From Methanosarcinales archaeon (GTDB taxonomy: Archaea > Halobacteriota > Methanosarcinia > Methanosarcinales > Methanogasteraceae): DNA of 57,853 nt. Positions 3,509 to 55,865 of the stretch are shown piece after piece. The first letter of the stretch is position 1, and every line of letters starts with the position of its first letter. Below the pieces are notes generated by a model. That model did not search any database. It was not told the origin of the DNA and was given only the letters and a program-made list of their open reading frames with translations. Where the stretch lies: positions 1-57,853 of the forward strand of contig RXIK01000114.1 in the NCBI GenBank assembly GCA_004211975.1, written 5' to 3'. The position numbers and the translations under genes were made by a program.

Positions 3509-5320
3509 ATGAAACAACACCTCATAGCAACACTACTACTCCTCGCATTGCTCACCTGCGCCGCGGATGGAAGCGAAGTTGCAGCGCCGGTTCTTAAGTG
3601 GCAGCAATGTGGCTGCTACAACTCGTGGTGCGAGACCGGCTGGTATTCTTCGCCAGCGGTGGCTGATCTGGATGGTGACGGTGATATGGAGGTTGTTGCT
3701 TCGGCTTACTCGGTTGTTGCGCTTGACGGTGAGACCGGCGACCTTTTGTGGCGTGTGAAATCCGGACATGACCGGAGCGAGGATCCTGGCAGCGTTGATA
3801 ATGTCGGGCGCACGTGGCCCGGGGTTGTGATTGCTGATGTGGATGATGACGGCGAGATTGAGATTGTGACCGCACACGGTCATGGCTATGTCTCGGTCTA
3901 CAACAATGAAGGCTACTTTGAGCCGGGATGGTGCAAGAACCCGGTCACAAACGAGTTTCGCTCGCTTGCCGTATCAGATCTTGACGGTGACGGCAATATG
4001 GAGATTGCTTGTGGGCTGGCACGCGGCGATAACACGAATATCTGGGTTTTTGAGCATGACGGAAGCATCCGGCAGGGCTGGCCCCGGCTGGCAGATGATG
4101 ATGACGGCTCGGCGTGGGGCACCTACAACGACAACATCGGTACCGGTGACATCGACGGTGACGGGCTGCCCGAACTGATCGTCCCATCCGACACGATCAC
4201 GATCTGCGCTTATGAGGCAGACGGGACGCACATCGGGACCAACAATATGTACCATGACCATTCGGGTCATAACATGGATTACTGGGGCAAGGTTCCCGCA
4301 TACATCAATCTATCGTACGAGACCCGCGGGTGGGGTCCATGCTACACAGAGTTTACTGTGAGAGCAAACTTTGCAAACGGACCTGCAAACGTGGTGGATG
4401 TCAACGGAGACGGCGTAAACGAAATTGTTGTGATTGGCGACGTTCACGACTGCCACACCAGCCCATACACCGACCTTTACAACACGCCCTACATATTTAA
4501 TTCGGATCGCAGCCGGTTCAGCGCAGACGGATTTGACTGGACCACGCCCCCGATTGAGACGGGAGCGCCAATCATTCAGGATTATGGCGTGATTGAGAGC
4601 GTGCAGCCAAATCCGGTAACCGTTGATCTTGATGCCGATGGTAGGATCGAGATTCTGTATCCTTCTTATGATGGGCGGATGCATGCGTTCTGGCTGGATA
4701 AAACCGAGCATGGCAACTGGCCATATTCGGTCTATGACTTGTCAGAGGGCTTTTATCGCCTTGCAACAGAGCCGGTCGTGGCTGATCTTGACAACGACGG
4801 GAACGCAGAGGTAATCTTCGGATCCTGGGTTCAGAAAGGGACCGAACACACAGGCAAGCTCCATATTCTTGACCATGCCGGAAACGTGATTCATGAGATG
4901 GATCTGCCTCCTGCGAAGTCCGGCGACTGGAACGGTGTGCTCGCGGCTCCAACGCTCGCGAATATTGATGATGATTCCGACCTTGAACTCGTGCTGAACA
5001 CGGCTCATTCCGGTGTTGTGGCTTACGACCTACCTGGAACCGCTGGTGCTCGAGTTCTCTGGGGCACCGGGCGTGGAAGCTACTATCGAAACGGAGAGTC
5101 TCCGGTTAGTTCCACGGTTCCGCAGAAGGGCGACCTTAATTTCGATGGCAACGTCACGTCCGCAGACGTCATAATTGTGCTAATGGTCGCTGTTGGGAGT
5201 CACGAACACCTGGATGCTGCCGATCTTAATTGTGATGGACGCGTGACTGCGCTTGACGCACGGCTCTTGCTGCACCATCTCACCGATCCGGAGAAGTATG
5301 CACTTAACCGTGTGTGCTGA
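3509..5320 (+). CDS. Secreted FG-GAP/VCBS-type beta-propeller protein with C-terminal dockerin-like module
   Basis: Signal peptide MKQHLIATLLLLALLTCAADG. At least 8 motifs of the type D-[LVI]-[DN]-x-D-G-x-x-E-[IVL] (DLDGDGDMEVV, DVDDDGEIEIV, DLDGDGNMEIA, DIDGDGLPELIV, DVNGDGVNEIVV, DLDADGRIEILY, DLDNDGNAEVIF, NIDDDSDLELVL). C-terminus has GDLNFDGNVTSADVIIVL and ADLNCDGRVTALDARLLL. Confidence 0.75.
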   Translation: MKQHLIATLLLLALLTCAADGSEVAAPVLKWQQCGCYNSWCETGWYSSPAVADLDGDGDMEVVASAYSVVALDGETGDLLWRVKSGHDRSEDPGSVDNVGRTWPGVVIADVDDDGEIEIVTAHGHGYVSVYNNEGYFEPGWCKNPVTNEFRSLAVSDLDGDGNMEIACGLARGDNTNIWVFEHDGSIRQGWPRLADDDDGSAWGTYNDNIGTGDIDGDGLPELIVPSDTITICAYEADGTHIGTNNMYHDHSGHNMDYWGKVPAYINLSYETRGWGPCYTEFTVRANFANGPANVVDVNGDGVNEIVVIGDVHDCHTSPYTDLYNTPYIFNSDRSRFSADGFDWTTPPIETGAPIIQDYGVIESVQPNPVTVDLDADGRIEILYPSYDGRMHAFWLDKTEHGNWPYSVYDLSEGFYRLATEPVVADLDNDGNAEVIFGSWVQKGTEHTGKLHILDHAGNVIHEMDLPPAKSGDWNGVLAAPTLANIDDDSDLELVLNTAHSGVVAYDLPGTAGARVLWGTGRGSYYRNGESPVSSTVPQKGDLNFDGNVTSADVIIVLMVAVGSHEHLDAADLNCDGRVTALDARLLLHHLTDPEKYALNRVC

Positions 5321-44797: not shown

Positions 44798-46009
44798 GTG
44801 ATTGCGGAATTAAAGAACGCTTTTAAGGTCGCATCACCCAATAGACCACTAATGACCCTACCAGAGCCGGAGCATACTGGCGATCAGAGCAGCAACACCG
44901 ACGCAGCCGTCCGATCAGACCCGGATCAAGAACTCAAACACATCGATGAGATTCTTGACAAGACAGATCGGAAGACCCGGATCGATGACGGGAGTTCTGT
45001 TGCTGAGATTTCACCTTCGCCGGTGCCAACCTCAGTGCCTCCACCATCATCACCACCACCCCAGCCGCCAACCACACCACCTCCGGCACCGACCCGGATC
45101 CCAACTCAACCACCAAAGAAAAACCCACTAAAAGGATTCTTTGTATATATTGCGATCGTGTTATTGCTGATAACGGTTATTGGGGTGAGCCTCGCGATGA
45201 TACTGGGAGATTTTGACACCCAGGGGCTTTATCCCGCTAAAGATCAGGTTGCTGTGATCTATGTGCAGGGAACAATGATCACCGGGGGGATTCCGGATGG
45301 ATTTGGGTTTGCAACCTCAGAAAACATCTGCAAGAACCTGAGGATTGCGGCAAAGGACGATAACATAAAAGCGATCGTTCTGCGAGTAAACAGCCCTGGC
45401 GGCACCCCCGCCGCGGCACAGGAGATCGCAACCGAGATCGCGAAAGTGAATGTGAACGGAAAGCCCGTGGTGATCTCGATGGCTGACGTCGCTGCAAGTG
45501 CTGCATACTACATCTCTGCCCCGGCAGACTGGATCATCGCAAATCCAGACACTATCACAGGCAGCATCGGCGTGGTCTGGGTATTTGAGAACAAATCAGG
45601 ATACTATGATGAAGAGGGAATCGAGCACTGGGTTGCAAAATCAGGGGAGTTTAAGGACATGGGCGCGGACTGGCGAAACCTGACTGCTGATGAGAAGGAG
45701 TATGCGGACACGGTGGTGATGGATGCGTTTTCACGGTTTGTGGACGCTGTTGCAAACGGAAGAAACATGACCCGGGACGACGTGTTAAACCTCTCTGACG
45801 GGCGCATATACACAGGCGCAAACGCAGTGGATCTTGGTCTGGTGGACGAGACCGGTAATATGTACGATGCCATCGACGTAGCCGCCGATCTTGGGAACAT
45901 CACGGGAGAGCCTACTATCACTTATATGAACAAACCATCAATTACCCAGTTGTTGTTTGGAGAAAGTGAGCGCATCAGCGAGTATACAGGCTTTGATGGT
46001 CCCGGTTAA
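44798..46009 (+). CDS. sppA: Signal peptide peptidase SppA (S49 family) with Pro-rich N-terminal extension and TM anchor
   Basis: VAVIYVQGTMITGG..., AIVLRVNSPGGTPAAAQEI, ADVAASAAYYISAPADWIIANPDTITGSIGVV. TM helix FFVYIAIVLLLITVIGVSLAMIL. GTG start. Confidence 0.8.
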   Translation: MIAELKNAFKVASPNRPLMTLPEPEHTGDQSSNTDAAVRSDPDQELKHIDEILDKTDRKTRIDDGSSVAEISPSPVPTSVPPPSSPPPQPPTTPPPAPTRIPTQPPKKNPLKGFFVYIAIVLLLITVIGVSLAMILGDFDTQGLYPAKDQVAVIYVQGTMITGGIPDGFGFATSENICKNLRIAAKDDNIKAIVLRVNSPGGTPAAAQEIATEIAKVNVNGKPVVISMADVAASAAYYISAPADWIIANPDTITGSIGVVWVFENKSGYYDEEGIEHWVAKSGEFKDMGADWRNLTADEKEYADTVVMDAFSRFVDAVANGRNMTRDDVLNLSDGRIYTGANAVDLGLVDETGNMYDAIDVAADLGNITGEPTITYMNKPSITQLLFGESERISEYTGFDGPG

Positions 46010-46541
46010 GCAGGATCTGCTCAACCGTCCCGATGTAAATTATGCATGGTCTACCGCGCCTCTGCGATGGCTGGAATTCATAGGTAAGCGATTCACTTGA
46101 CTGCCACATCTGATCAATCACATGAAGTAGCGTGATTGCTTCGGCACATCCCTCAATCACACCAATCGTTCCATCCATAATCTGACACGCGCACCAGAAC
46201 GGGCAGGTGTTGCCGATCACGAGTTTAATTGCGCCGCCCGCGGTCGTGGTCATAGTGATGTCTGGCGGGTCTGGCATTGAATCAACAAAACAAGAGATCA
46301 CACCCTCCAGCCGATCAAATTTCTTTGAGGTGTCAATGTTTGATTCTTGCAGCCATATCCTGGCTGCGTTTTTAATAATAGGATCAAAGAGCACACGCGC
46401 ATCCCTAAACCGTACGTGCGATACCTCTGCCACCGCAGCGACCAGTGCCGGGCAGGAGAACCCCATAGAATCCGCAACACATTCTGTTCCATTCATGCTA
46501 AACTTGCACCCACGTCTTGACATCATAGTAAACATTTTCAT
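45975..46541 (-). CDS. Cys-rich cytoplasmic protein, unknown function (possibly V4R-like small-molecule-binding fold)
   Basis: ORF 45975..46823 trimmed to ATG 46539-46541 (MKMFTMMSRRG), because the upstream part is antisense to the PT-rich region of the divergent gene. Contains CPFWCACQIMDGTIGVIEGCAE. The family guess is weak. Confidence 0.45.
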   Translation of the reverse strand: MKMFTMMSRRGCKFSMNGTECVADSMGFSCPALVAAVAEVSHVRFRDARVLFDPIIKNAARIWLQESNIDTSKKFDRLEGVISCFVDSMPDPPDITMTTTAGGAIKLVIGNTCPFWCACQIMDGTIGVIEGCAEAITLLHVIDQMWQSSESLTYEFQPSQRRGRPCIIYIGTVEQILLNRDHQSLYTR

Positions 46542-46596
46542 CAATATTAAAGATTGGGATTGAACCAACAACTTTACAATCCGATACCTCGCATAG

Positions 46597-47073
46597 ATGC
46601 TTAACATGAAATTAAATTCCATATTGTTTGTATCGCTGCTGGTGGTTGCAGCGCTGTTTGCCGGATGCATCGGAGATGACGAAAACGAGGTTGTGCCAAC
46701 ACCAACCCCAACAGCGACTCCTGAGCCTACTCCGATCGCGACTCTGGCGCCAACACCAACCCCAACAGCGACTCCTGAGCCTACTCCGACTGAAACCGTC
46801 AAACTGAACCCGCCAAAGCCCATATATCTCGAGAAGTATGCGATGGCGCCAAAGACTCCAACGATTCGTGTTGGCGAGGCGCTGAACTGGATTAACCTTC
46901 AAAAAAGCCCTATGCTCACATACACATTGGTGAGTGAGGATGAGCTATGGGAGAACCAGTCGCTCAGCTACGGCAAGAAGTTCAAGTACACGTTCGACAT
47001 GCCGGGCAACTACTCGTATTATTGTTCAGGCTACGGAAATGCGATGCGCGGAACCGTAACCGTAGTTGAGTGA
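46597..47073 (+). CDS. Lipobox-bearing cupredoxin-like protein lacking all His ligands, with PT-rich duplicated linker
   Basis: LFAGC lipobox-like signal end. Linker PTPTPTATPEPTPIATLAPTPTPTATPEPTPTE. C-terminus PGNYSYYCSGYGNAMRGTVTVVE mimics the cupredoxin C-x2-H-x2-4-M-x-G end, but with Tyr instead of His. The whole protein contains no His. Confidence 0.55.
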   Translation: MLNMKLNSILFVSLLVVAALFAGCIGDDENEVVPTPTPTATPEPTPIATLAPTPTPTATPEPTPTETVKLNPPKPIYLEKYAMAPKTPTIRVGEALNWINLQKSPMLTYTLVSEDELWENQSLSYGKKFKYTFDMPGNYSYYCSGYGNAMRGTVTVVE

Positions 47074-47137: not shown

Positions 47138-47650
47138 TTACTTTATCAGTTCGAGACGTTGTCCTTTAACGGTCAGCTGGCATGACCGTCTTGCAACGCC
47201 TCTGATGAGTGCTGAACTCATGTCAAGGGCTCTGGATAATCCCACCATTGAGCGGTTGCCTTTTGTAACCTCTTTCTCGATCGCATCGATCATTTCGGAG
47301 ATTTCCGCGTCGCTCTTGAAGGTTATCATGATTAAGTCGCTCATATCCTTAACCGAACACTGAAAATTCGCATGTAACTTCGAATATGTCGTTGTGTATT
47401 CCTTGTCTGGTGTTTTCCCGGGTTCTGGCATTCGCCACTGGCTTTCGATCAGACCGCCCTTTCGCAGGATATCAAGACTCTGCCTGACATCCGCGCCAAT
47501 GCGCTCTGAGAGTTCCTGTTCGGTCACCCATCCATTAGACAGTTCATCAAAGACTTTCTTGTGGGTATTTGAGCCAAAGGTTCGCAGCAACAATACCAGA
47601 TCAGAAGGGTCGTTTATAAGTTTTGTTCGCTTTCCCATTGGCGTTGCCAT
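47138..47650 (-). CDS. Winged-helix (ArsR/TrmB-like) DNA-binding protein
   Basis: KKVFDELSNGWVTEQELSERIGADVRQSLDILRKGGLIESQW is a wHTH pattern. It is the last gene of the co-oriented CetZ-like cluster, 10 nt after the 91-aa gene. Confidence 0.55.
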   Translation of the reverse strand: MATPMGKRTKLINDPSDLVLLLRTFGSNTHKKVFDELSNGWVTEQELSERIGADVRQSLDILRKGGLIESQWRMPEPGKTPDKEYTTTYSKLHANFQCSVKDMSDLIMITFKSDAEISEMIDAIEKEVTKGNRSMVGLSRALDMSSALIRGVARRSCQLTVKGQRLELIK

Positions 47651-47660
47651 ATTTAACTAC

Positions 47661-47936
47661 CTATATCCTTGACAGATTGTCCAGAAAAGCCTTTGCATCA
47701 GTCTTATCACCATACACAAAAACAATGTTCATTTCGCCGTTCACTTCGATCACCATTTTGTCAAGCAACTTTCTTCTTGCACGAACCCTAATATTGTTTT
47801 CGGTATACATACGACTTGCGTCGCTGTAGTATAGGTCATGACCCTCTTCGACGCGGGAGACTTTGAAACCCATTTTTGTCAGCGTGTCCGTAATGTATGC
47901 CAGCGTAATATCTTCATCGTATTGCCTTATGATCAC
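47661..47936 (-). CDS. Small (91 aa) protein, unknown function
   Basis: An ORF with no competing frame, 48 nt downstream of the CetZ-like gene and co-oriented. No recognisable motifs. Confidence 0.45.
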   Translation of the reverse strand: MIIRQYDEDITLAYITDTLTKMGFKVSRVEEGHDLYYSDASRMYTENNIRVRARRKLLDKMVIEVNGEMNIVFVYGDKTDAKAFLDNLSRI

Positions 47937-47984
47937 ATTGCACCTCGTTTTTTGGCAAATACCATGGAATAGACCGGAAATATT

Positions 47985-49082
47985 TCAGTATATTGGCTCA
48001 AGATCATCTATATGGGCAAACGCACCATCAAGCTGTTTCTTTGACTGTTCTCGCTTGTCCATCTCAAAACGAATCGCATCCGCGGCGTCAGCATATATTC
48101 TCTCAAGTTCAGGCACCGAATTAAGAGTAAACAGCGATAACACCTTAGGTCTACCTTTTTTAATAAGAACTCCTTTGAAAACCTGCCCAACATCCGTAGA
48201 AAGCTCTTCAACAGTCTTGGTGATCAGATCAAGATCAAGATATTTCTTGTCGCCCTTGATGATCAACATCGCACGGGCACCTTCGTTGTACACGTTTGTG
48301 GGGAACAGAAGCCCACTTGGTTTGAAACTCCCAAGAATCGCGGACTTGATCGTGCCATCCTTGCCTGCCTCGTAGTAGCCCATGGTCCCGATACCGATTC
48401 CGCCATTCATCACGGTCTTCAGGTCGCCAAGATCGGTGACCATCAGCATCTCGCTATTGAGTGCCTCGATCAGGAATAGCACCCGCATTGCGACTGAGGT
48501 GTTGATCTTGTCATAAGCGGACTTGATGTCGCCTGCGTATTTCTTCAGATACTGGTTGTCCACAAGCAGTATCCCGTTAGGACTCTCAGCGACTAACTCC
48601 CGTATGCAGAAAGCCGTGTTCTGCAGGAAGATGGAGCCTTCTTCCCTGAACGGAAGTACCGCGATACAGATGATCTGGGCATTGTATGCTTTCTTCAGTT
48701 CTTTCACAAGAAGCGGCGCAAATGATGACCCGCTTCCACCCGCGGTGGATGTGACGATAAATATAAGCTCAAACGACCCTCTTTTGTCGATTTCACTCAT
48801 AATCTGCTCTTTATTATCGTCAAAAACCTTTTTTCCAAGTGTGCGGTTCGCGCCGACGCCGTGCAGGTGTGGGACGTGAAAACGGTCTTTCGCACGTGTA
48901 TCTGTCAGACCCTTCAGGTCATTGATCGCGGTGTTGATTGCGATTGTCTTGACCGAGGCTGGAAACTTCTGACGCGAGTAATATTTTGCAAACGTGCCGC
49001 CGCTTCCGAATGCTTCGTGATTAACCGCATCAAGCACCCGGTTTCCACATTGTCCGAGTCCGAGAATGAGTATGTTCAGCAT
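47985..49082 (-). CDS. CetZ-like tubulin/FtsZ-superfamily GTPase, paralogue A
   Basis: T1 GLGQCGN; INTAINDLKGL; HGVGANRTLGKK; T4-like TAGGSGSS; LPFREEGS; QNTAFCIREL; LLVDNQYL; T7-like VTDLGDLKTVMNGG; ARAMLIIKGDK. 365 aa, acidic C-terminal peptide ...HIDDLEPIY. Confidence 0.8.
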   Translation of the reverse strand: MLNILILGLGQCGNRVLDAVNHEAFGSGGTFAKYYSRQKFPASVKTIAINTAINDLKGLTDTRAKDRFHVPHLHGVGANRTLGKKVFDDNKEQIMSEIDKRGSFELIFIVTSTAGGSGSSFAPLLVKELKKAYNAQIICIAVLPFREEGSIFLQNTAFCIRELVAESPNGILLVDNQYLKKYAGDIKSAYDKINTSVAMRVLFLIEALNSEMLMVTDLGDLKTVMNGGIGIGTMGYYEAGKDGTIKSAILGSFKPSGLLFPTNVYNEGARAMLIIKGDKKYLDLDLITKTVEELSTDVGQVFKGVLIKKGRPKVLSLFTLNSVPELERIYADAADAIRFEMDKREQSKKQLDGAFAHIDDLEPIY

Positions 49083-49098
49083 ATTATCTGTCTCTTAC

Positions 49099-50292
49099 CT
49101 AAAATGAATATTCTCTGCGTCGTTTTATGAGCCATAACAGTATTAAGACTATCGGAATTGCTGCAAGAATATATATGTAATATTTATCAAAACCTGACAG
49201 CTCTGCCCAGAACTCCGCGCTCGCGCTCGCTTCCGCATCAGCCCACAGCACATCCATCTTAATTATATGTTTTCCAGGCTCGTAAGCGATCATCGTGACA
49301 TCATACTCCACAAAGTCACCAGGCTTGATTGATTCGTACACCGGATCTATCTCGCCATCCGCCACACGCACATCATCCGGCAGATGGCTCTTGATGGTGA
49401 CCCTGCCACTGGTGGCGTTTCCGATGTTATCGATCCTGATGATTGCAGGAAACCTGTCGCCACAGGTTATGACGTCGTCGTCAGACTCAATTGTGACCTT
49501 GATCCCAAGTTCCGGAACCAGAACCTCCTCTGCCACGATCACGAGCACGTTGCTTGTGGACTCGGACGAATACGATGCGCCTGACTCGCTCTTGTAATTC
49601 AGCAGAGTCGGGTTCAGTTCATACGTCCCTGGCTCTGCATCGATGATTTTAAGGTCATAACTGACCCGTTCGGTCGCACCTGCTGCGATGTCATTAAGGC
49701 TGGCGGGGCAGCCCTCCATATACGCCCCCGTAATAGTGGATTCGTCCAGCTCAATCTCTGATGCAGTCCCGTTCCCCTCGTTCTTGATCTTGAATGTGAC
49801 CTTCACCGTCTGCCCCTGCTGCACACTGGCTATATCAAGCGTTCTGGTGATCTTAAGTTTCGGGACTGTAACAGCATCAGCCACCTCTTCCAAATCTTCT
49901 TCAGTCTCTACGTCGTAGTAGTCGGTTACACGCCAGTTCGAGGGTCCTGATACGCTGAACTGCACGGAGTCACTGTACACTCCGATCACATCGAAGTAGA
50001 TGGACGTACCACGGTACGTCTCATATTTATTAACTTGCGGACCGTCTTCTCTAAATACCGTAATCGTTCTTTCCGGCTTCTGGTAGCTTGTTATGCGAAA
50101 CTTTGCACGTTCGGGCGGGATTCTATTCACATCGACGACCTCGATATGGATACTGGTTTCAATTGTTATGCCCTCGTTGACCTGCAACTCGTTATCAAAT
50201 ATGTAACTATCATTCCCGGAAGCAACGACTACCGGAATCAGCAACATAAACACAAAAATAGTTGCGATTACCAAAATCCTGACGCTATTCAT
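49099..50292 (-). CDS. Type-I surface membrane protein: signal peptide, 3 beta-sandwich ectodomains (2 CARDB/COG1361-like), C-terminal TM helix, 8-aa basic tail; partner A
   Basis: MNSVRILVIATIFVFMLLIPVVVASG signal. CARDB-like GQTVKVTFKIKNEGNGTASEIELDE and FPAIIRIDNIGNATSGRVTIKSHLP. TM YYIYILAAIPIVLILLWLI plus tail KRRREYSF. The stop lies 16 nt before the CetZ-like ATG. Confidence 0.7.
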   Translation of the reverse strand: MNSVRILVIATIFVFMLLIPVVVASGNDSYIFDNELQVNEGITIETSIHIEVVDVNRIPPERAKFRITSYQKPERTITVFREDGPQVNKYETYRGTSIYFDVIGVYSDSVQFSVSGPSNWRVTDYYDVETEEDLEEVADAVTVPKLKITRTLDIASVQQGQTVKVTFKIKNEGNGTASEIELDESTITGAYMEGCPASLNDIAAGATERVSYDLKIIDAEPGTYELNPTLLNYKSESGASYSSESTSNVLVIVAEEVLVPELGIKVTIESDDDVITCGDRFPAIIRIDNIGNATSGRVTIKSHLPDDVRVADGEIDPVYESIKPGDFVEYDVTMIAYEPGKHIIKMDVLWADAEASASAEFWAELSGFDKYYIYILAAIPIVLILLWLIKRRREYSF

Positions 50293-50310
50293 TGGTATCA
50301 GATTGCCGGT

Positions 50311-50333
50311 TTATATTTTATAAACCTTGCGAA
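50311..50333 (-). promoter_or_regulatory. Candidate BRE/TATA promoter box of module A (duplicated with module B)
   Basis: ttatattttataaaccttgcgaa (coding-strand sense ttcgcaaggtttataaaatataa) lies 19-41 nt upstream of ATG 50292. 20 of 23 positions are identical to 52858-52880. Confidence 0.5.
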
Positions 50334-50421
50334 CAAACGATGGCGCTCACGCCAGCACTGTGGTTGACCGGTGTGTTTTTAGGGTTGTATGGTGTTGATC
50401 CGGGCGGATCAACATTGGGGG

Positions 50422-51519
50422 TTAGTAGATTGGCTCAAGTTCCTCGATGCAAGCGAACGCATTATCCAGCTGTTTTTTCGACTCTTCGCGTTTGACTTTC
50501 TCTGTGCGGATTGCGTCTGCTGCGCTGGCGTACAGGCTGTCGAGTTCAGGTATTGAATTCAGGGTAAACAGCGATAAGACCTTTGCAGGACCTTTTTTGA
50601 CGAGAACGCCCTTGAAGACCTGCCCGACCTCTGTGGACAGTTCCTCGATGGTTTTATTGATCATGTCAAGGTCGAGATACTTCTTGTTGCCCTTGATGAT
50701 CAACATTGCACGTGCGCCCTCGGTGTACACGTTTGCGGGAAACAGAAGTCCACTTGGCTTGAAACTTCCGAGAATGGTGGATTTAACCGTGTTGCCATTG
50801 TCAGACTCGTAGAATCCCATGGTTCCAATGCCGACACCCCCATTCATCACGGTCTTCAGGTCGCCAAGATCGGTGACCATCAGCATCTCGCTGTTGAGTG
50901 CCTCGATCAGGAAAAGCAGCCGTCGTGCAGTTGTTTCATTGATCTTGTCGTAAGCGGACTTGATGTCGCCGGCGTATTTCTTCAGGTACTGGTTGTCCAC
51001 AAGCAGTATCCCGTTGGGTTTCTCTTCGATAAGTTCTTTTATGCAGAAAGCTGTGTTTTGCAGTGATATGGATCCTTCTTCCCTGAACGGGAGCACTGCG
51101 ATGCAGACGATCTGGGCGTTGTATGCTGCTTTCAGTTCTTCCACAAGACGCGGTGCAAATGAGGAGCCGCTTCCGCCTGCGGTGGATGTGATGATGAATA
51201 TCAGATCAAACGATCCCCGTTTATCGATTTCACCCATGATCAGCTCTTTGTTATCCTCGAAGACTTTTTTTCCGAGGGTGCGGTTTGCACCAACACCGTG
51301 CAGGTGCGGAACATGAAACCGATCCTTTGCAAGTGTGCATTTCAGCCCTTTCAGATCATTGATCGCGGTGTTGATTGCGATTGTTTTGACCGAGGCTGGA
51401 AACTTCTGGTTCGAATAATATTTTGCGAACATGCCGTTTCCCCCAAACGCCTCGCTGTTGATTGAATCAAGTATCCGGTTACCGCATTGTCCCAGTCCAA
51501 GAACTAGTATATTAAGCAT
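50422..51519 (-). CDS. CetZ-like tubulin/FtsZ-superfamily GTPase, paralogue B
   Basis: Gapless 365-aa alignment with paralogue A (roughly four-fifths identical by eye). Same motifs (GLGQCGN, HGVGAN, TAGGSGSS, VTDLGDLKTVMNGG). C-terminus ...CIEELEPIY. Confidence 0.8.
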   Translation of the reverse strand: MLNILVLGLGQCGNRILDSINSEAFGGNGMFAKYYSNQKFPASVKTIAINTAINDLKGLKCTLAKDRFHVPHLHGVGANRTLGKKVFEDNKELIMGEIDKRGSFDLIFIITSTAGGSGSSFAPRLVEELKAAYNAQIVCIAVLPFREEGSISLQNTAFCIKELIEEKPNGILLVDNQYLKKYAGDIKSAYDKINETTARRLLFLIEALNSEMLMVTDLGDLKTVMNGGVGIGTMGFYESDNGNTVKSTILGSFKPSGLLFPANVYTEGARAMLIIKGNKKYLDLDMINKTIEELSTEVGQVFKGVLVKKGPAKVLSLFTLNSIPELDSLYASAADAIRTEKVKREESKKQLDNAFACIEELEPIY

Positions 51520-51542
51520 ATTACTTCCCCCTCATCTTCTAT

Positions 51543-52793
51543 TTAGTAGGAATACTCCTTATGTCTTCTTATAATACCTACCAATAATAAGCCTATCGGA
51601 ACTGCTGCCAGAATATGCGGGTAATATGTAGCCAGACTCGATTGCTCTGCCCAAAACTCGGCACTCGCGCTCACCTCATCGTCAGCCCACAGCGCATCCA
51701 TCTTGATCACATGCTTTCCAGGCTCGTAGGCGATCATCATGACCTCATGCTCCACATAATCACCGGGTTTGATTGATTCGTACACCGGATCTATCTCGCC
51801 ATCCGCTACACGCACATCATCAGGCAGATGGCTTTTGATGGTGACCCTGCCACTGGTGGCGTTTCCTGTGTTCATGATTCCAATGGTCACCGGGAACCGT
51901 TCGCCACAGATCATAGTGTTGTCGTCAGACTCGATTGTGATCCCGATCTCAAGTGTTGGCACTTGAACATCTTTTACTGTGACTTTAAGCGTGTTGCTCA
52001 GGGACTCGAACGAATATGCTGCACCTGACTCATCCTTACAGTTTAGCAGGGTTGCGCCCAGTTCATAAGTTCCAGGTGGTGTATTAATGATCTTAAGGTC
52101 ATAACTAACTCTTTCAGTCGCGCCTGCCGCAATATCATCGAGGTTAGACGGACAGTTTTCCTGATATGCTTCTCTGAGTAGCGGTTCGTCCAGTTTGATC
52201 TCTGATGCAGTTCCGTTCCCCGTGTTTTTGATCTTGAATGTGACTCCAACAGTCTCCCCCTGTTCAACATGGTTTCTGTCAAGCGTCCGCGTGATCACAA
52301 GCTCTGGCACAGACACTGTTTCAGCGGCAGACTCCGACTCAGACTCAGTTTTAGCATCTTCAGCTTCATAATAACGGGTTACTCTCCAGCCTTTCGGTCC
52401 GGTAACCATGAGAAGCACGGTCTCGTCATGCACCGAGATCACATCCAGATATATGCAGGCGCCATTATACGTCTCATACTTGGTCGGCATATCGCCCATG
52501 AATACTTTAACCGTCCGTGCAAACGCTCGCGGACTTGATATACAGAACTCTGCCGAGTCAACAATATCTTCCGTTGTGTCAACAACCTCTATTGTTATAC
52601 TGTGCTCGATCTCGACACCTTCACCAACGTTCAGATTCCGCTCAAATATCTGCTCGCCATAATCACTTGACGCAGCGGCAGTCATGATCAGCGAGGATAG
52701 CAGCAGAATAGTTGCAACCACCACCAGGTGGCTTAACCTCAGCATAGTTGGATTATTTTGTTTATTTCTGAGTTGTAGAGTTATATTTGACAC
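51543..52793 (-). CDS. Type-I surface membrane protein, partner B (paralogue of 49099..50292)
   Basis: Signal/anchor MLRLSHLVVVATILLLSSLIMTAAASS (alternative start 52745). CARDB-like GETVGVTFKIKNTGNGTASEIKLDE and FPVTIGIMNTGNATSGRVTIKSHLP. TM YYPHILAAVPIGLLLVGII plus tail RRHKEYSY. The stop lies 23 nt before the CetZ-like ATG. Confidence 0.7.
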   Translation of the reverse strand: MSNITLQLRNKQNNPTMLRLSHLVVVATILLLSSLIMTAAASSDYGEQIFERNLNVGEGVEIEHSITIEVVDTTEDIVDSAEFCISSPRAFARTVKVFMGDMPTKYETYNGACIYLDVISVHDETVLLMVTGPKGWRVTRYYEAEDAKTESESESAAETVSVPELVITRTLDRNHVEQGETVGVTFKIKNTGNGTASEIKLDEPLLREAYQENCPSNLDDIAAGATERVSYDLKIINTPPGTYELGATLLNCKDESGAAYSFESLSNTLKVTVKDVQVPTLEIGITIESDDNTMICGERFPVTIGIMNTGNATSGRVTIKSHLPDDVRVADGEIDPVYESIKPGDYVEHEVMMIAYEPGKHVIKMDALWADDEVSASAEFWAEQSSLATYYPHILAAVPIGLLLVGIIRRHKEYSY

Positions 52794-52857
52794 CCCCGGT
52801 AAAGAATCAATTCAATGAAGAACCAATTCAGCAGCCCCGCACATATATCTAAGTATC

Positions 52858-52880
52858 CTATATCTTATAAATCTTGCGAA
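52858..52880 (-). promoter_or_regulatory. Candidate BRE/TATA promoter box of module B
   Basis: ctatatcttataaatcttgcgaa is the paralogue of 50311-50333. It lies 65-87 nt upstream of ATG 52793. Confidence 0.45.
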
Positions 52881-53220: not shown

Positions 53221-53403
53221 TCAAAAAATGGTTCCAGGTAGTTCTGTTAATATCAGATATATAACAAAACCAATAAACCCGATCAGCAGTATTCCTGCAC
53301 CGGCAACCTTCGCAATCATTATAAACTCTTCTCTGCTCGGCTTTCTCGCCAGTTTGAGTACTCGCGTATACTCACCAAGTTTGATCGAATCAGTCAGCGA
53401 CAT
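53221..53403 (-). CDS. secE: Protein translocase subunit SecE (Sec61 gamma)
   Basis: 60 aa. KLARKPSREEFIMIAKVAGAGILLIGFIGFVIYLI gives a single C-terminal TM. Classical position 3 nt downstream of archaeal ftsZ. Confidence 0.85.
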   Translation of the reverse strand: MSLTDSIKLGEYTRVLKLARKPSREEFIMIAKVAGAGILLIGFIGFVIYLILTELPGTIF

Positions 53404-53406
53404 TGT

Positions 53407-54519
53407 TCAGCACACGAAGTCGATGCCGTATTTTCTGACGACACTTGGTCCGGTAGATCCACCTCTACCGTAGATCTGTGGCGATTTGACGCCAGTTACC
53501 ACGAGCATAGTGCGCACCGTGTTCTCGAGCGCCGGGTCGATCTGCGCCCCCCATATCAGACGTGCGTTCGGATCGATTCGCTGATAAACTTCTTCAACGA
53601 CGCCTTCTGCATCTGATACGGTCATGTCGGATCCGCCAACCACGTTCACGAGTGCCGCATTTGCGCCAGAGATGTCTACATCGAGAAGCGGACTTCTGAG
53701 TGCCTTTTTCACCGATTCTGTCGCTTTGTTCTCGCCCTCTGCCTCGCCAAGCCCGATCATCGCAACGCCACCCTTCTGCATGATTGTTCGCACGTCTGCG
53801 AAGTCGAGGTTGACCAGCCCTGGTTTTGTGATCAGTTCGGTTATTCCCTTGACCGCTCGCATCAGAACCTCATCGCATACCTTAAAAGCCACCTGTAATG
53901 GGAGTCTTGGCACCACTTCCATCAGCCGGTCGTTTGGAACGACGATTACGGTGTCAGATACTTCCATCAGCCGTTTAAGTCCTGCTTCGGCATTGCTTCG
54001 TCTGATTGAACCCTCTGCCGTGAACGGGAGTGTTGCGATCGCGATTGTGAGTGCGCCAGCGTCCTGCGCGGCTTTTGCAACGACTGGAGCAGCTCCGGTG
54101 CCTGTGCCGCCACCAAGCCCGCATGTGATGAACACCATGTCGGTGCCATCCACGATCTTCTGGATTTCGTCCAGGTTTTCCTCGGCAGAGGCTTCCCCGA
54201 TCTGTGGCATACTGCCTGCACCCAGTCCTTTCGTGGTTTTGTGGCCGATCAGCACCTTCTGGCCGGCATTGATGTACAGCAGATGCTGGGCATCGGTGTT
54301 TATGGCGCACAAGTCCGCGCCGCTGATACCGTCCTCCATCATCCGCTGGACTGTGTTTGAGCCACCGCCACCGCATCCTACGACCGCGATGTTGGTCTTG
54401 AGTTCTGACAGGATCTTCTCAAGTTCCTGATCGGTCTCGATTGACTGATCCTGCAGGTATATTGGCGAGTCTACTGGTATTTCCGCCCGAGATAATGCGT
54501 CTTCGACTATGGATTTCAT
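53407..54519 (-). CDS. ftsZ: Cell division GTPase FtsZ
   Basis: [14 protein letters not shown] (T1), [15 protein letters not shown] (T4), [11 protein letters not shown] (T7). GGAGG lies 8 nt upstream of the ATG. Confidence 0.95.
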
Positions 54520-54821: not shown

Positions 54822-55865
54822 TCACGATGCGCGCCTTGTAAATAGGTATACAAGCAGCACCACACCCGTGCTCACCATCCAGCCAAACCCGGGAGTGGAC
54901 TTGCCTTCATCGCCTGCACCGGTGTCCGCGCCAGCATCAGTCCCTGATTGCCCTGTATCTGTAGCGGCGGATCCGGCTCCAACGGCTGGTGGCACCGATA
55001 CCACGGTGTTTCCATTGTACACCATCTTCGTTCCGTCAGGGCTCCAGTGTGGGTCGCGTTCCCTGCCCTCTGTTGCAGTGGTGAGTCTTAGCTTGCCGGT
55101 TCCGTCCACATTCACGATATACACCCGCTCAAGCTTATCCTCATTGAATGAAACATAAGCGATCCTTGTCCCGTCGGGACTATAACTTGGGGAAAACTGC
55201 TTCTCTTCGATGTCTGGCATCAGTTCCCTCTTGCCTGTGCCATCCACGTTCACAATAAAGATCTTATCAAGATTATTGTTAACATTGAATGAATGGTAGG
55301 CGATCTTTGTTCCGTCAGGACTGAAATCAGGGGTAAATTGTTTCTTTGAGTCATCCGGCATCAGCTCCTCTGCACCGGTCCCGTCGATGTTCGCGATATA
55401 GAGTTTCTCCTTGCTGCCCAACTGCCTTGATATGTAAGCAATCTTCGTCCCGTCAGGGCTAATATCAGGGCTCCACTGTTTCTTTGAGTCATCCGGCATC
55501 AGCTCCTTTGCATCGGTTCCATCCGCATCCACCACATGAATCTTTCCATTTCCCTGTTTGTTAAATGAGATATAGAAGATCTTCTTTCCATCATGACTCC
55601 AGTCAGGAGTAAACTCTTTTTTCTGTATATCCGGCATTAACACGGTTGCACCAGTACCGTCTGCCTTTGAAATGAACAATTTATCTTTTCCACCCGCATC
55701 AAAATCCGCGAAAACAATCCTGGCGCCATCCGGACTAAATGAACCGTCCGGCTTGATTGAACAGTCGTATTCATCATATACTGCCGCAGACACACACTGT
55801 GACAGCGCCATTACTGTAAACACCAGTAACAGTGTTGTTATTCTTATTATTTGCATGTGAATCAC
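54822..55865 (-). CDS. Secreted PD40/TolB-like beta-propeller protein with PGF-CTERM archaeosortase sorting signal
   Basis: Signal peptide ...ALSQCVSAA. Six SPDG[TA][KR]I[AV][YF]-type PD40 repeats. Ser/Thr/Gly/Ala linker, then TPGFGWMVSTGVVLLVYLFTRRAS (PGF + TM + basic end). Confidence 0.8.
   Translation of the reverse strand: MIHMQIIRITTLLLVFTVMALSQCVSAAVYDEYDCSIKPDGSFSPDGARIVFADFDAGGKDKLFISKADGTGATVLMPDIQKKEFTPDWSHDGKKIFYISFNKQGNGKIHVVDADGTDAKELMPDDSKKQWSPDISPDGTKIAYISRQLGSKEKLYIANIDGTGAEELMPDDSKKQFTPDFSPDGTKIAYHSFNVNNNLDKIFIVNVDGTGKRELMPDIEEKQFSPSYSPDGTRIAYVSFNEDKLERVYIVNVDGTGKLRLTTATEGRERDPHWSPDGTKMVYNGNTVVSVPPAVGAGSAATDTGQSGTDAGADTGAGDEGKSTPGFGWMVSTGVVLLVYLFTRRAS

Follow-up and report, generated by a model that had tools for sequence, protein, structure and literature searches.

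A membrane protein with a conserved cytoplasmic tail accompanies a clade of CetZ GTPases in methane-cycling archaea

CetZ proteins, membrane tethers and the locus

CetZ proteins, members of the tubulin/FtsZ superfamily, govern cell shape and the development of motility in haloarchaea. To our knowledge, no link from CetZ filaments to the envelope has been described. Here we analyse a locus of a Methanosarcinales archaeon (GenBank assembly GCA_004211975.1, contig RXIK01000114.1; the window, meaning the whole stretch of DNA that was analysed, is 57,853 nt long), in which a gene for a CetZ-like GTPase (G) directly follows a gene for a surface protein (M) with a single transmembrane (TM) helix. This two-gene unit is present twice (M1-G1 and M2-G2). 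Because the same pairing recurs across methane-cycling archaea, M is the best current candidate for a link between CetZ filaments and the envelope.

The closest described relatives of G are the CetZ proteins in the PDB (4B46, CetZ1; 4B45, CetZ2; 3ZID). G has in common with them the GTPase domain, an intact T7 motif and a short conserved hydrophobic/acidic C-terminal peptide, like LESLF in CetZ1. It differs from the Haloferax volcanii proteins in a tubulin-like T1 motif (GQCGNR), in a CetZ_C domain that scores below its cut-off and in lacking the long M-loop of CetZ1. In contrast to the two canonical CetZ loci that we checked, those of this clade have a membrane-protein gene of their own upstream of cetZ. 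Non-motile cocci are numerous among the hosts of the clade (PMC9856176 Table S1).

cetZ genes can also stand beside genes for secreted or membrane surface proteins in other archaea: in Thermococcales and some Halobacteria they are embedded in type IV pilus-like loci (PMC9856176, PMC4858521). There, however, the pilin-like neighbours carry class III signal peptides and the loci contain many genes, including assembly ATPases, whereas M, whose signal peptide is of the ordinary kind and whose anchor is C-terminal, is strictly paired with G in a unit of two genes.

Other cytoskeletal polymers have membrane tethers. ZipA, FtsA and SepF tether FtsZ, and RodZ tethers MreB; RodZ is bitopic and joins a cytoplasmic filament to the extracytoplasmic side. 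The logic we propose for M is common to these tethers, namely that a membrane protein holds a polymerising nucleoside triphosphatase via a short peptide contact. They have no sequence or fold kinship with M, however. Their cytoplasmic part is a folded domain or an amphipathic helix, and in the case of FtsZ it is the tail of the filament that is bound, whereas M has merely eight cytoplasmic residues and a large Ig-like ectodomain.

Integrin-type receptors follow a plan similar to that of M: beta-sandwich domains are stacked outside the cell, a single TM helix crosses the membrane, and the cytoplasmic tail is very short. In integrins this short tail connects to the cytoskeleton. Foldseek matches M1 to the legs of integrin alpha chains (E ~1e-8), but with TM-scores of about 0.2; hence, the similarity is generically Ig-like and implies no homology. 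M has no head domain, heterodimer or adaptor proteins, which makes integrins an analogy only.

Near Methanosarcinales cetZ genes, nadA, nadC and nadX have been reported (PMC9856176), and the comparative CetZ literature also places a fourth arCOG there. The M partner is not mentioned in the comparative CetZ/tubulin papers that we searched, in the archaeal type IV pilus census, in the archaeal membrane-protein survey or in what targeted full-text searches returned, although it may be described elsewhere. Published work on CsmR and on the ANME-2a proteome contains nothing relevant to the pairing. The GTPases are of a known type; a conserved module of a CetZ and a membrane protein with an invariant tail appears to be undescribed.

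Conservation of the pair and of its two proteins

We scanned genomes and metagenomes with the GTPase, which yielded 116 loci, and ran a locally built hidden Markov model of M on all of their open reading frames (ORFs). An M homologue lies immediately upstream of 111 of the 113 testable CetZ genes, on the same strand and with a gap of -4 to 152 nt. After de-duplication the 111 pairings amount to 91 distinct pairs, whose G proteins fall into 25 clusters at 92% identity. We find the pair in group 2 of the anaerobic methanotrophic archaea (ANME-2), Methanothrix, Methanosalsum and Methanosarcina; Methanothrix harundinacea, Methanosalsum zhilinae and a Methanosarcina have it in complete genomes. It also occurs in Ca. 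Methanohalarchaeum thermophilum (class Methanonatronarchaeia) and on one unassigned contig. An earlier interpretation of this locus, made from the DNA alone (the sequence-only reading), had proposed that the pairing is meaningful, and its recurrence in related genomes and in a second class agrees with this proposal.

The remaining neighbours vary: nadX, nadC and nadA in Methanosarcinaceae and Methanothrix, and a gene for a 91-residue protein (p91) together with a PF09824 regulator in ANME-2. In some ANME-2 (loci L022, L025, L026 and L029) one of two types of the pair, type 2, stands alone elsewhere in the genome; hence, the pair moves as a unit. Pairwise distances among M proteins and among G proteins correlate with r = 0.96. 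We found no M-like neighbour at the control loci, which comprise a cetZ1-type locus of Halobacteriales, a further locus with CetZ_C and the loci of sister-clade tubulins. Judged by these controls, the association with M is specific to this CetZ clade. It is very probable that M and this clade form a functional module.

The best-kept segment of M is its cytoplasmic tail. Among 25 non-redundant representatives the mean column conservation is 0.70 in the tail and 0.43-0.50 in the ectodomains. The consensus of the tail across representatives is [KR][KR]x[KR][EDAQ]-Y-[SKR]-[YF]-COOH, and the tyrosine at position -3 is invariant wherever the tail has its standard eight residues (24/24 representatives; L031, with an extended tail, is left out). 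On the side of the GTPase, an acidic C-terminal peptide, I-E-D-L-E-[EP]-x-Y-COOH, is conserved throughout the clade, and this octapeptide is as conserved as the tail of M. In CetZ1 of H. volcanii, rod development requires the C-terminal tail LESLF, which has been suggested to make contacts with other proteins (bioRxiv 10.1101/2024.04.08.588506).

M1 and M2 are 60% identical (E 2e-166). The hydropathy profile of M1 has two segments, at residues 1-32 and 367-392, the second followed by the tail KRRREYSF; the signal peptide covers approximately residues 1-25 and the TM helix residues 367-389. The AlphaFold2 model of M1, built with 47 homologues, has a mean predicted local distance difference test score (pLDDT) of 82.5 and contains beta-sandwich domains at 30-127, 146-253 and 262-364 and a helix at 367-396. 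Hydropathy and model confirm the topology that the sequence-only reading had assigned to M: a predicted type-I, bitopic, N-out protein with a signal peptide, a large three-domain ectodomain outside the cell, one TM helix and eight cytoplasmic residues.

The CARDB-like character of the ectodomains, part of the same reading, is borne out by profile matches. CARDB (PF07705) and DUF11 (PF01345) score 34.2 and 34.7 bits in M1 and 38.9 and 39.2 bits in M2, with cut-offs of 22.7 and 24.6, and domains 2 and 3 also exceed the cut-offs for PF24346 (DUF7507) and PF05753 (TRAP_beta). These CARDB/DUF11 ("CLIPPER") and TRAP-beta modules are common to domains 2 and 3 of M, but they are widespread and uninformative on cytoskeletal coupling. 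A Foldseek search of the M1 model against the PDB returned only generic tandem Ig-like matches (RbmA, integrin legs and transglutaminase barrels; TM-score ~0.2). M1 and M2 contain no PGF motif, which speaks against a PGF-CTERM archaeosortase substrate, and no pilin family matches them; by inspection, the N-terminus MNSVRILVIATIFVFMLLIPVVVASG is an ordinary signal peptide and not one of the class III (pilin) type. What characterises the M family is the N-terminal domain, the TM helix and the conserved tail. The Methanohalarchaeum homologue (L117, 3286-4914) is longer, with 542 residues, extra beta-sandwich sequence and the variant tail RRHQFNYK.

The GTPases G1 and G2 are 83% identical over 365 residues. 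G1 matches 3ZID, the CetZ of Methanosaeta thermophila, end to end with E 5e-141, and hence both belong to the Methanosarcinales-type CetZ clade. This clade, including the M. thermophila protein, has been classed as CetZ (PMC9856176). The next PDB matches of G1 are H. volcanii CetZ2 (9e-26) and CetZ1 (1e-21), followed by FtsZ entries with E values of at least 4.6e-14 and tubulins at ~1e-6. G1 and G2 score 104-108 bits on the tubulin/FtsZ GTPase domain PF00091 (cut-off 33). They do not qualify as FtsZ proper, with 62-64 bits on TIGR00065 (cut-off 295) and no match to PF12327 (FtsZ_C). CetZ_C (PF21011) reaches 13.4 bits in G1 and 15.1 bits in G2 (cut-off 21.6), and some members of the clade carry a precomputed PF21011 match. 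In an exhaustive HMMER search against 1.8 billion representatives the clade is compact, with one 50%-identity cluster plus a few sisters at 31-39% identity; beyond the sisters, scores fall to E ~1e-25 for other CetZs. Since G1 and G2 lie within a known and crystallised CetZ clade, the GTPase is not novel.

The motifs that the sequence-only reading quoted for the GTPases (GLGQCGN, HGVGAN, TAGGSGSS and VTDLGDLKTVMNGG) are found in G1 and G2 and kept in the clade, and its call of CetZ-like GTPases holds. Across the clade, T1 GQCGN, T4 GG[ST]GSS, TDLGD and the T7 residues D217 and D220 are invariant. The T4 sequence TAGGSGSS had been flagged as a deviation, but it is a minor one: most of the clade has GGTGSS, and GGSGS is also present in H. 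volcanii CetZ2. We considered whether T4 marks a divergent or inactive GTPase and dropped this idea. Judged by the invariant motifs and by its close, crystallised relative from M. thermophila, G looks like an active polymerising GTPase.

The sister clade deserves a separate remark. Its CetZ-like tubulins (L119, 3910-4998; L123, 1076-2161; L124, 778-1863) are 39% identical to G1, and one of them (P0218) ends in LEPEY, as this clade does. Their genes sit among packed, tiny, co-directional ORFs without Pfam matches, a setting that looks like a mobile element or virus; a scan of viral contigs for relatives of these tubulins found none. L120 (472-3852) contains two tandem CetZ-like tubulin genes followed by a gene for a highly acidic protein of 398 residues with several hydrophobic segments, an arrangement that may be a different tubulin-membrane protein module.

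Two old pairs in one locus

Every gene between 47138 and 52880 is on the minus strand. The sequence-only reading had described a tandemly duplicated unit with a period of about 2.44 kb and gaps of 16 or 23 nt between M and G. All four ORFs are where it placed them, with a period of 2437 nt from G to G and 2444 nt from M to M and with gaps of 23 nt (M2-G2) and 16 nt (M1-G1), and the similarity of the copies is far above what chance would give. The two copies therefore stand, but they have to be redescribed as old paralogues. A recent duplication was dropped as an explanation, as the GTPases of ANME-2 fall into two old paralogue clades with bootstrap values of 100 and 88.

In trees of full-length M, by contrast, the proteins of one genome lineage cluster together (support 97 and 92). 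The segments of M differ in this respect: similarity is highest within a lineage for ectodomain 3 (68% vs 52%) and within a paralogue type for the C-terminal 33 residues (61% vs 51.5%). Among all ANME-2 pairs, position -11 is W in 27/27 of type 1 and G in 13/13 of type 2, and position -6 is R in 25/27 of type 1 and H in 13/13 of type 2. A tract of 90 nt in domain 3 of M1 (49328-49417, minus strand) is 97% identical to 51772-51861 in M2, against a background of 55-80%, and we read it as a gene-conversion patch. It has been proposed as a reason for doubt that the GTPases might nest in ordinary CetZ without any co-variation with M. They do nest in a known CetZ clade, yet co-variation is seen, both in the distance correlation and in the signature of the TM helix and tail.

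The simplest interpretation of these patterns is that gene conversion may have acted on the ectodomains inside each genome, while every anchor and tail remained matched to the CetZ of its own pair. We call this reading suggestive because the sample is small. The pattern is what one would expect if the anchor and tail face CetZ and the ectodomain faces a lineage-specific extracellular partner.

Read in the direction of transcription, the locus begins with a promoter-like box of the archaeal type (transcription factor B recognition element and TATA element) 5' of M2 at 52857-52880 (TTCGCAAGATTTATAAGATATAGG). It is nearly identical to the box 5' of M1 at 50311-50333 (TTCGCAAGGTTTATAAAATATAA), so the box that the earlier reading saw in duplicate is indeed there twice. 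Both were read directly from the DNA and identified by eye, and their consensus is TTCGCAAG[G/A]TTTATAA[A/G]ATATA. The TATA element of M1 lies ~25-30 nt before the ATG; hence, the mRNA would be leaderless or nearly so. A scan for sigma-70 promoters and terminators gave match counts near the shuffled expectation, with a model that does not cover other promoter types.

M2 occupies 51543-52793. Its signal peptide is followed by three beta-sandwich domains and a TM helix, and it ends in the tail RRHKEYSY-COOH (51546-51569), with the type-2 signature (G at -11, H at -6). Its longest ORF starts with GTG at 52793; the probable start is the ATG at 52745, giving 400 residues and an N-terminus that aligns with that of M1. 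G2, of ANME-2 paralogue type 2, follows at 50422-51519 (365 residues, C-terminus IEELEPIY). Nine nucleotides past its stop codon we read a perfect 8-bp hairpin, GTTGATCC-GCCC-GGATCAAC, at 50394-50413. It has no counterpart on the 3' side of G1 and may mark the boundary between the two units.

The second unit starts with M1 at 49099-50292 (397 residues), identified as a type-I membrane protein by profile matches, hydropathy and the AlphaFold2 model, with the tail KRRREYSF-COOH at 49102-49125 and the type-1 signature (W at -11, R at -6). G1, of ANME-2 paralogue type 1, lies at 47985-49082 (365 residues, C-terminal peptide IDDLEPIY).

Two further genes follow on the same strand, as the sequence-only reading had noted. 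p91 (47661-47936) lies between the G1-type cetZ and the winged-helix gene, as it always does in ANME-2. It belongs to no Pfam or NCBIfam family, has no similarity to the 97-residue ORF 3' of the Methanohalarchaeum cetZ, and gave a poor single-sequence AlphaFold2 model (pLDDT 51). The winged-helix regulator (47138-47650, 170 residues) starts 10 nt after p91 and matches PF09824 ("ArsR") over its full length with 214.3 bits (cut-off 28.6). In ANME-2 this regulator comes after the clade's cetZ, always past p91; in the more distant L057 it follows cetZ (4263-4769) without p91. We did not find it at that position in Methanothrix or Methanosarcinaceae.

Directly upstream of M2, at 53221-54519 (minus strand), are secE and a bona fide ftsZ. 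The latter (53407-54519) scores 438 bits on TIGR00065 and also has the FtsZ_C domain. Because it adjoins the two units, three tubulin-superfamily genes lie within 6.5 kb. This gene order recurs only in the closest relative, L002. Further upstream, a PD40 beta-propeller protein (54822-55865, minus strand) ends in TPGFGWMVSTGVVLLVYLFTRRAS, by eye a PGF-CTERM archaeosortase-like C-terminus, an anchor of a different kind from that of M. On the other side, a cupredoxin-like lipoprotein with a Thr/Pro-rich linker is encoded on the plus strand (46597-47073). An overlapping antisense ORF of 282 residues (45975-46823, minus strand) starts with the reverse reading of that linker repeat and has no family match.

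A possible coupling to the envelope and its alternatives

How could M and CetZ work together? The two genes form a conserved module that is probably co-transcribed. M would be exported via its signal peptide and anchored by its single TM helix, with three Ig-like beta-sandwich domains outside. We propose that its basic Tyr-x-Tyr tail, alone or with the inner end of the TM helix, could serve as docking site for the cognate CetZ, with the acidic C-terminal peptide of the GTPase as its candidate counterpart. Docking would tether GTP-dependent CetZ filaments at the membrane and couple them mechanically to whatever the ectodomain contacts, be it S-layer, sheath, matrix or a neighbouring cell. The reverse is possible too, with CetZ filaments clustering or positioning M; we infer both the direction and the purpose of the coupling. 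In the lineage of the window, the M-G pairs are old paralogues arranged in tandem; each has a putative promoter to itself, and the p91 protein and the PF09824 regulator come after the second pair.

We give a probability of about 50% to the reading that M is such a bitopic coupler and that its tail directly recruits CetZ polymers to the envelope. A bolder version seems to us somewhat less probable and is offered tentatively. In this version, a tubulin-family cytoskeleton of archaea would have in M its first dedicated transmembrane coupler, which would work in an integrin-like manner. A paralogue-specific TM helix and tail would bind its own CetZ filament and an exchangeable Ig-like ectodomain would engage the S-layer, the sheath or a neighbouring cell, so that force or positional information could cross the membrane in Methanosarcinales, ANME-2 consortia and Methanonatronarchaeia.

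Several points weigh against direct recruitment. First, eight residues are very short for a specific binding site, and the basic residues among them could merely reflect the positive-inside rule. Second, the sister-clade tubulins retain the LEPEY C-terminus without an M gene; hence, the CetZ tail has, or had, a role that is independent of M. Third, there are exceptions to the pairing: L067, a Methanothrix-like locus, has a CetZ of the clade without M, and in L031 the M gene is 497 nt distant and its tail is extended. Fourth, a large share of the 113 cases lies on metagenomic contigs that are close relatives of one another, and the paralogue-specific signal in the tail rests on three lineages and 33 residues. 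Fifth, the neighbourhoods of the CetZ clades of Methanomicrobiales, Archaeoglobales and Thermococcales lie outside our direct survey.

The main rival is a functional link without direct binding, which we consider unlikely but to be taken seriously. One could argue that M serves at the surface, in adhesion or in the envelope and is expressed along with CetZ in a programme of envelope remodelling, while CetZ reaches the membrane alone or via another partner and the tail serves the topology, sorting or turnover of M. H. volcanii CetZ1 does associate with liposomes in vitro, and no protein anchor has been described for it (bioRxiv 10.1101/2024.04.08.588506). Both the C-terminal peptide that the sister clade keeps in the absence of M and the match of the basic juxtamembrane residues to the positive-inside rule would also fit. 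The invariant Tyr-x-Tyr/Phe carboxy-terminus, however, is more than a stop-transfer signal needs. Furthermore, the tail signature of M tracks the type of CetZ paralogue, whereas the ectodomain does not, and M and cetZ relocate as a unit.

The other two explanations are minor. It is improbable that M corresponds to TRAP-beta in archaea, or assists the S-layer in a general way, and that CetZ organises sites of secretion or S-layer insertion instead of being anchored by M. TRAP-beta has the architecture seen in M, a beta-sandwich, one TM helix and a short tail. Several M proteins (those of the window, L033, L037 and L118) exceed the cut-off for PF05753 with 30-51 bits, M2 adjoins secE in the window, and M2 weakly matches an S-layer family (the MEMAR_RS02690-type glycoprotein NF041431). 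The TRAP_beta matches coincide, however, with equally strong CARDB/DUF11 matches and therefore most likely reflect a generic Ig-like fold family. The adjacency to secE is confined to the lineage of the window, and the S-layer match has 23.9 bits against a cut-off of 600.

That the adjacency is inherited synteny and functionally meaningless is slightly less probable still: nadC, nadX and nadA, which have no obvious functional connection to cetZ, likewise keep synteny with it in Methanosarcinaceae and Methanothrix (PMC9856176), but the M-cetZ pair persists where all other neighbours have changed, even across two classes, keeps short gaps and a common strand, has been duplicated and translocated whole, and consists of two proteins whose distances are closely correlated.

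A strictly co-inherited bitopic partner with an invariant tail is a concrete candidate for the link between CetZ and the envelope. The pair occurs in the genetically tractable Methanosarcina, and 3ZID shows that a CetZ of this clade can be purified and crystallised. If direct recruitment by M is true, it would be the first known transmembrane link from the archaeal tubulin-like cytoskeleton to the cell surface, in organisms whose ability to aggregate, form sheaths and build consortia is relevant to the methane cycle.

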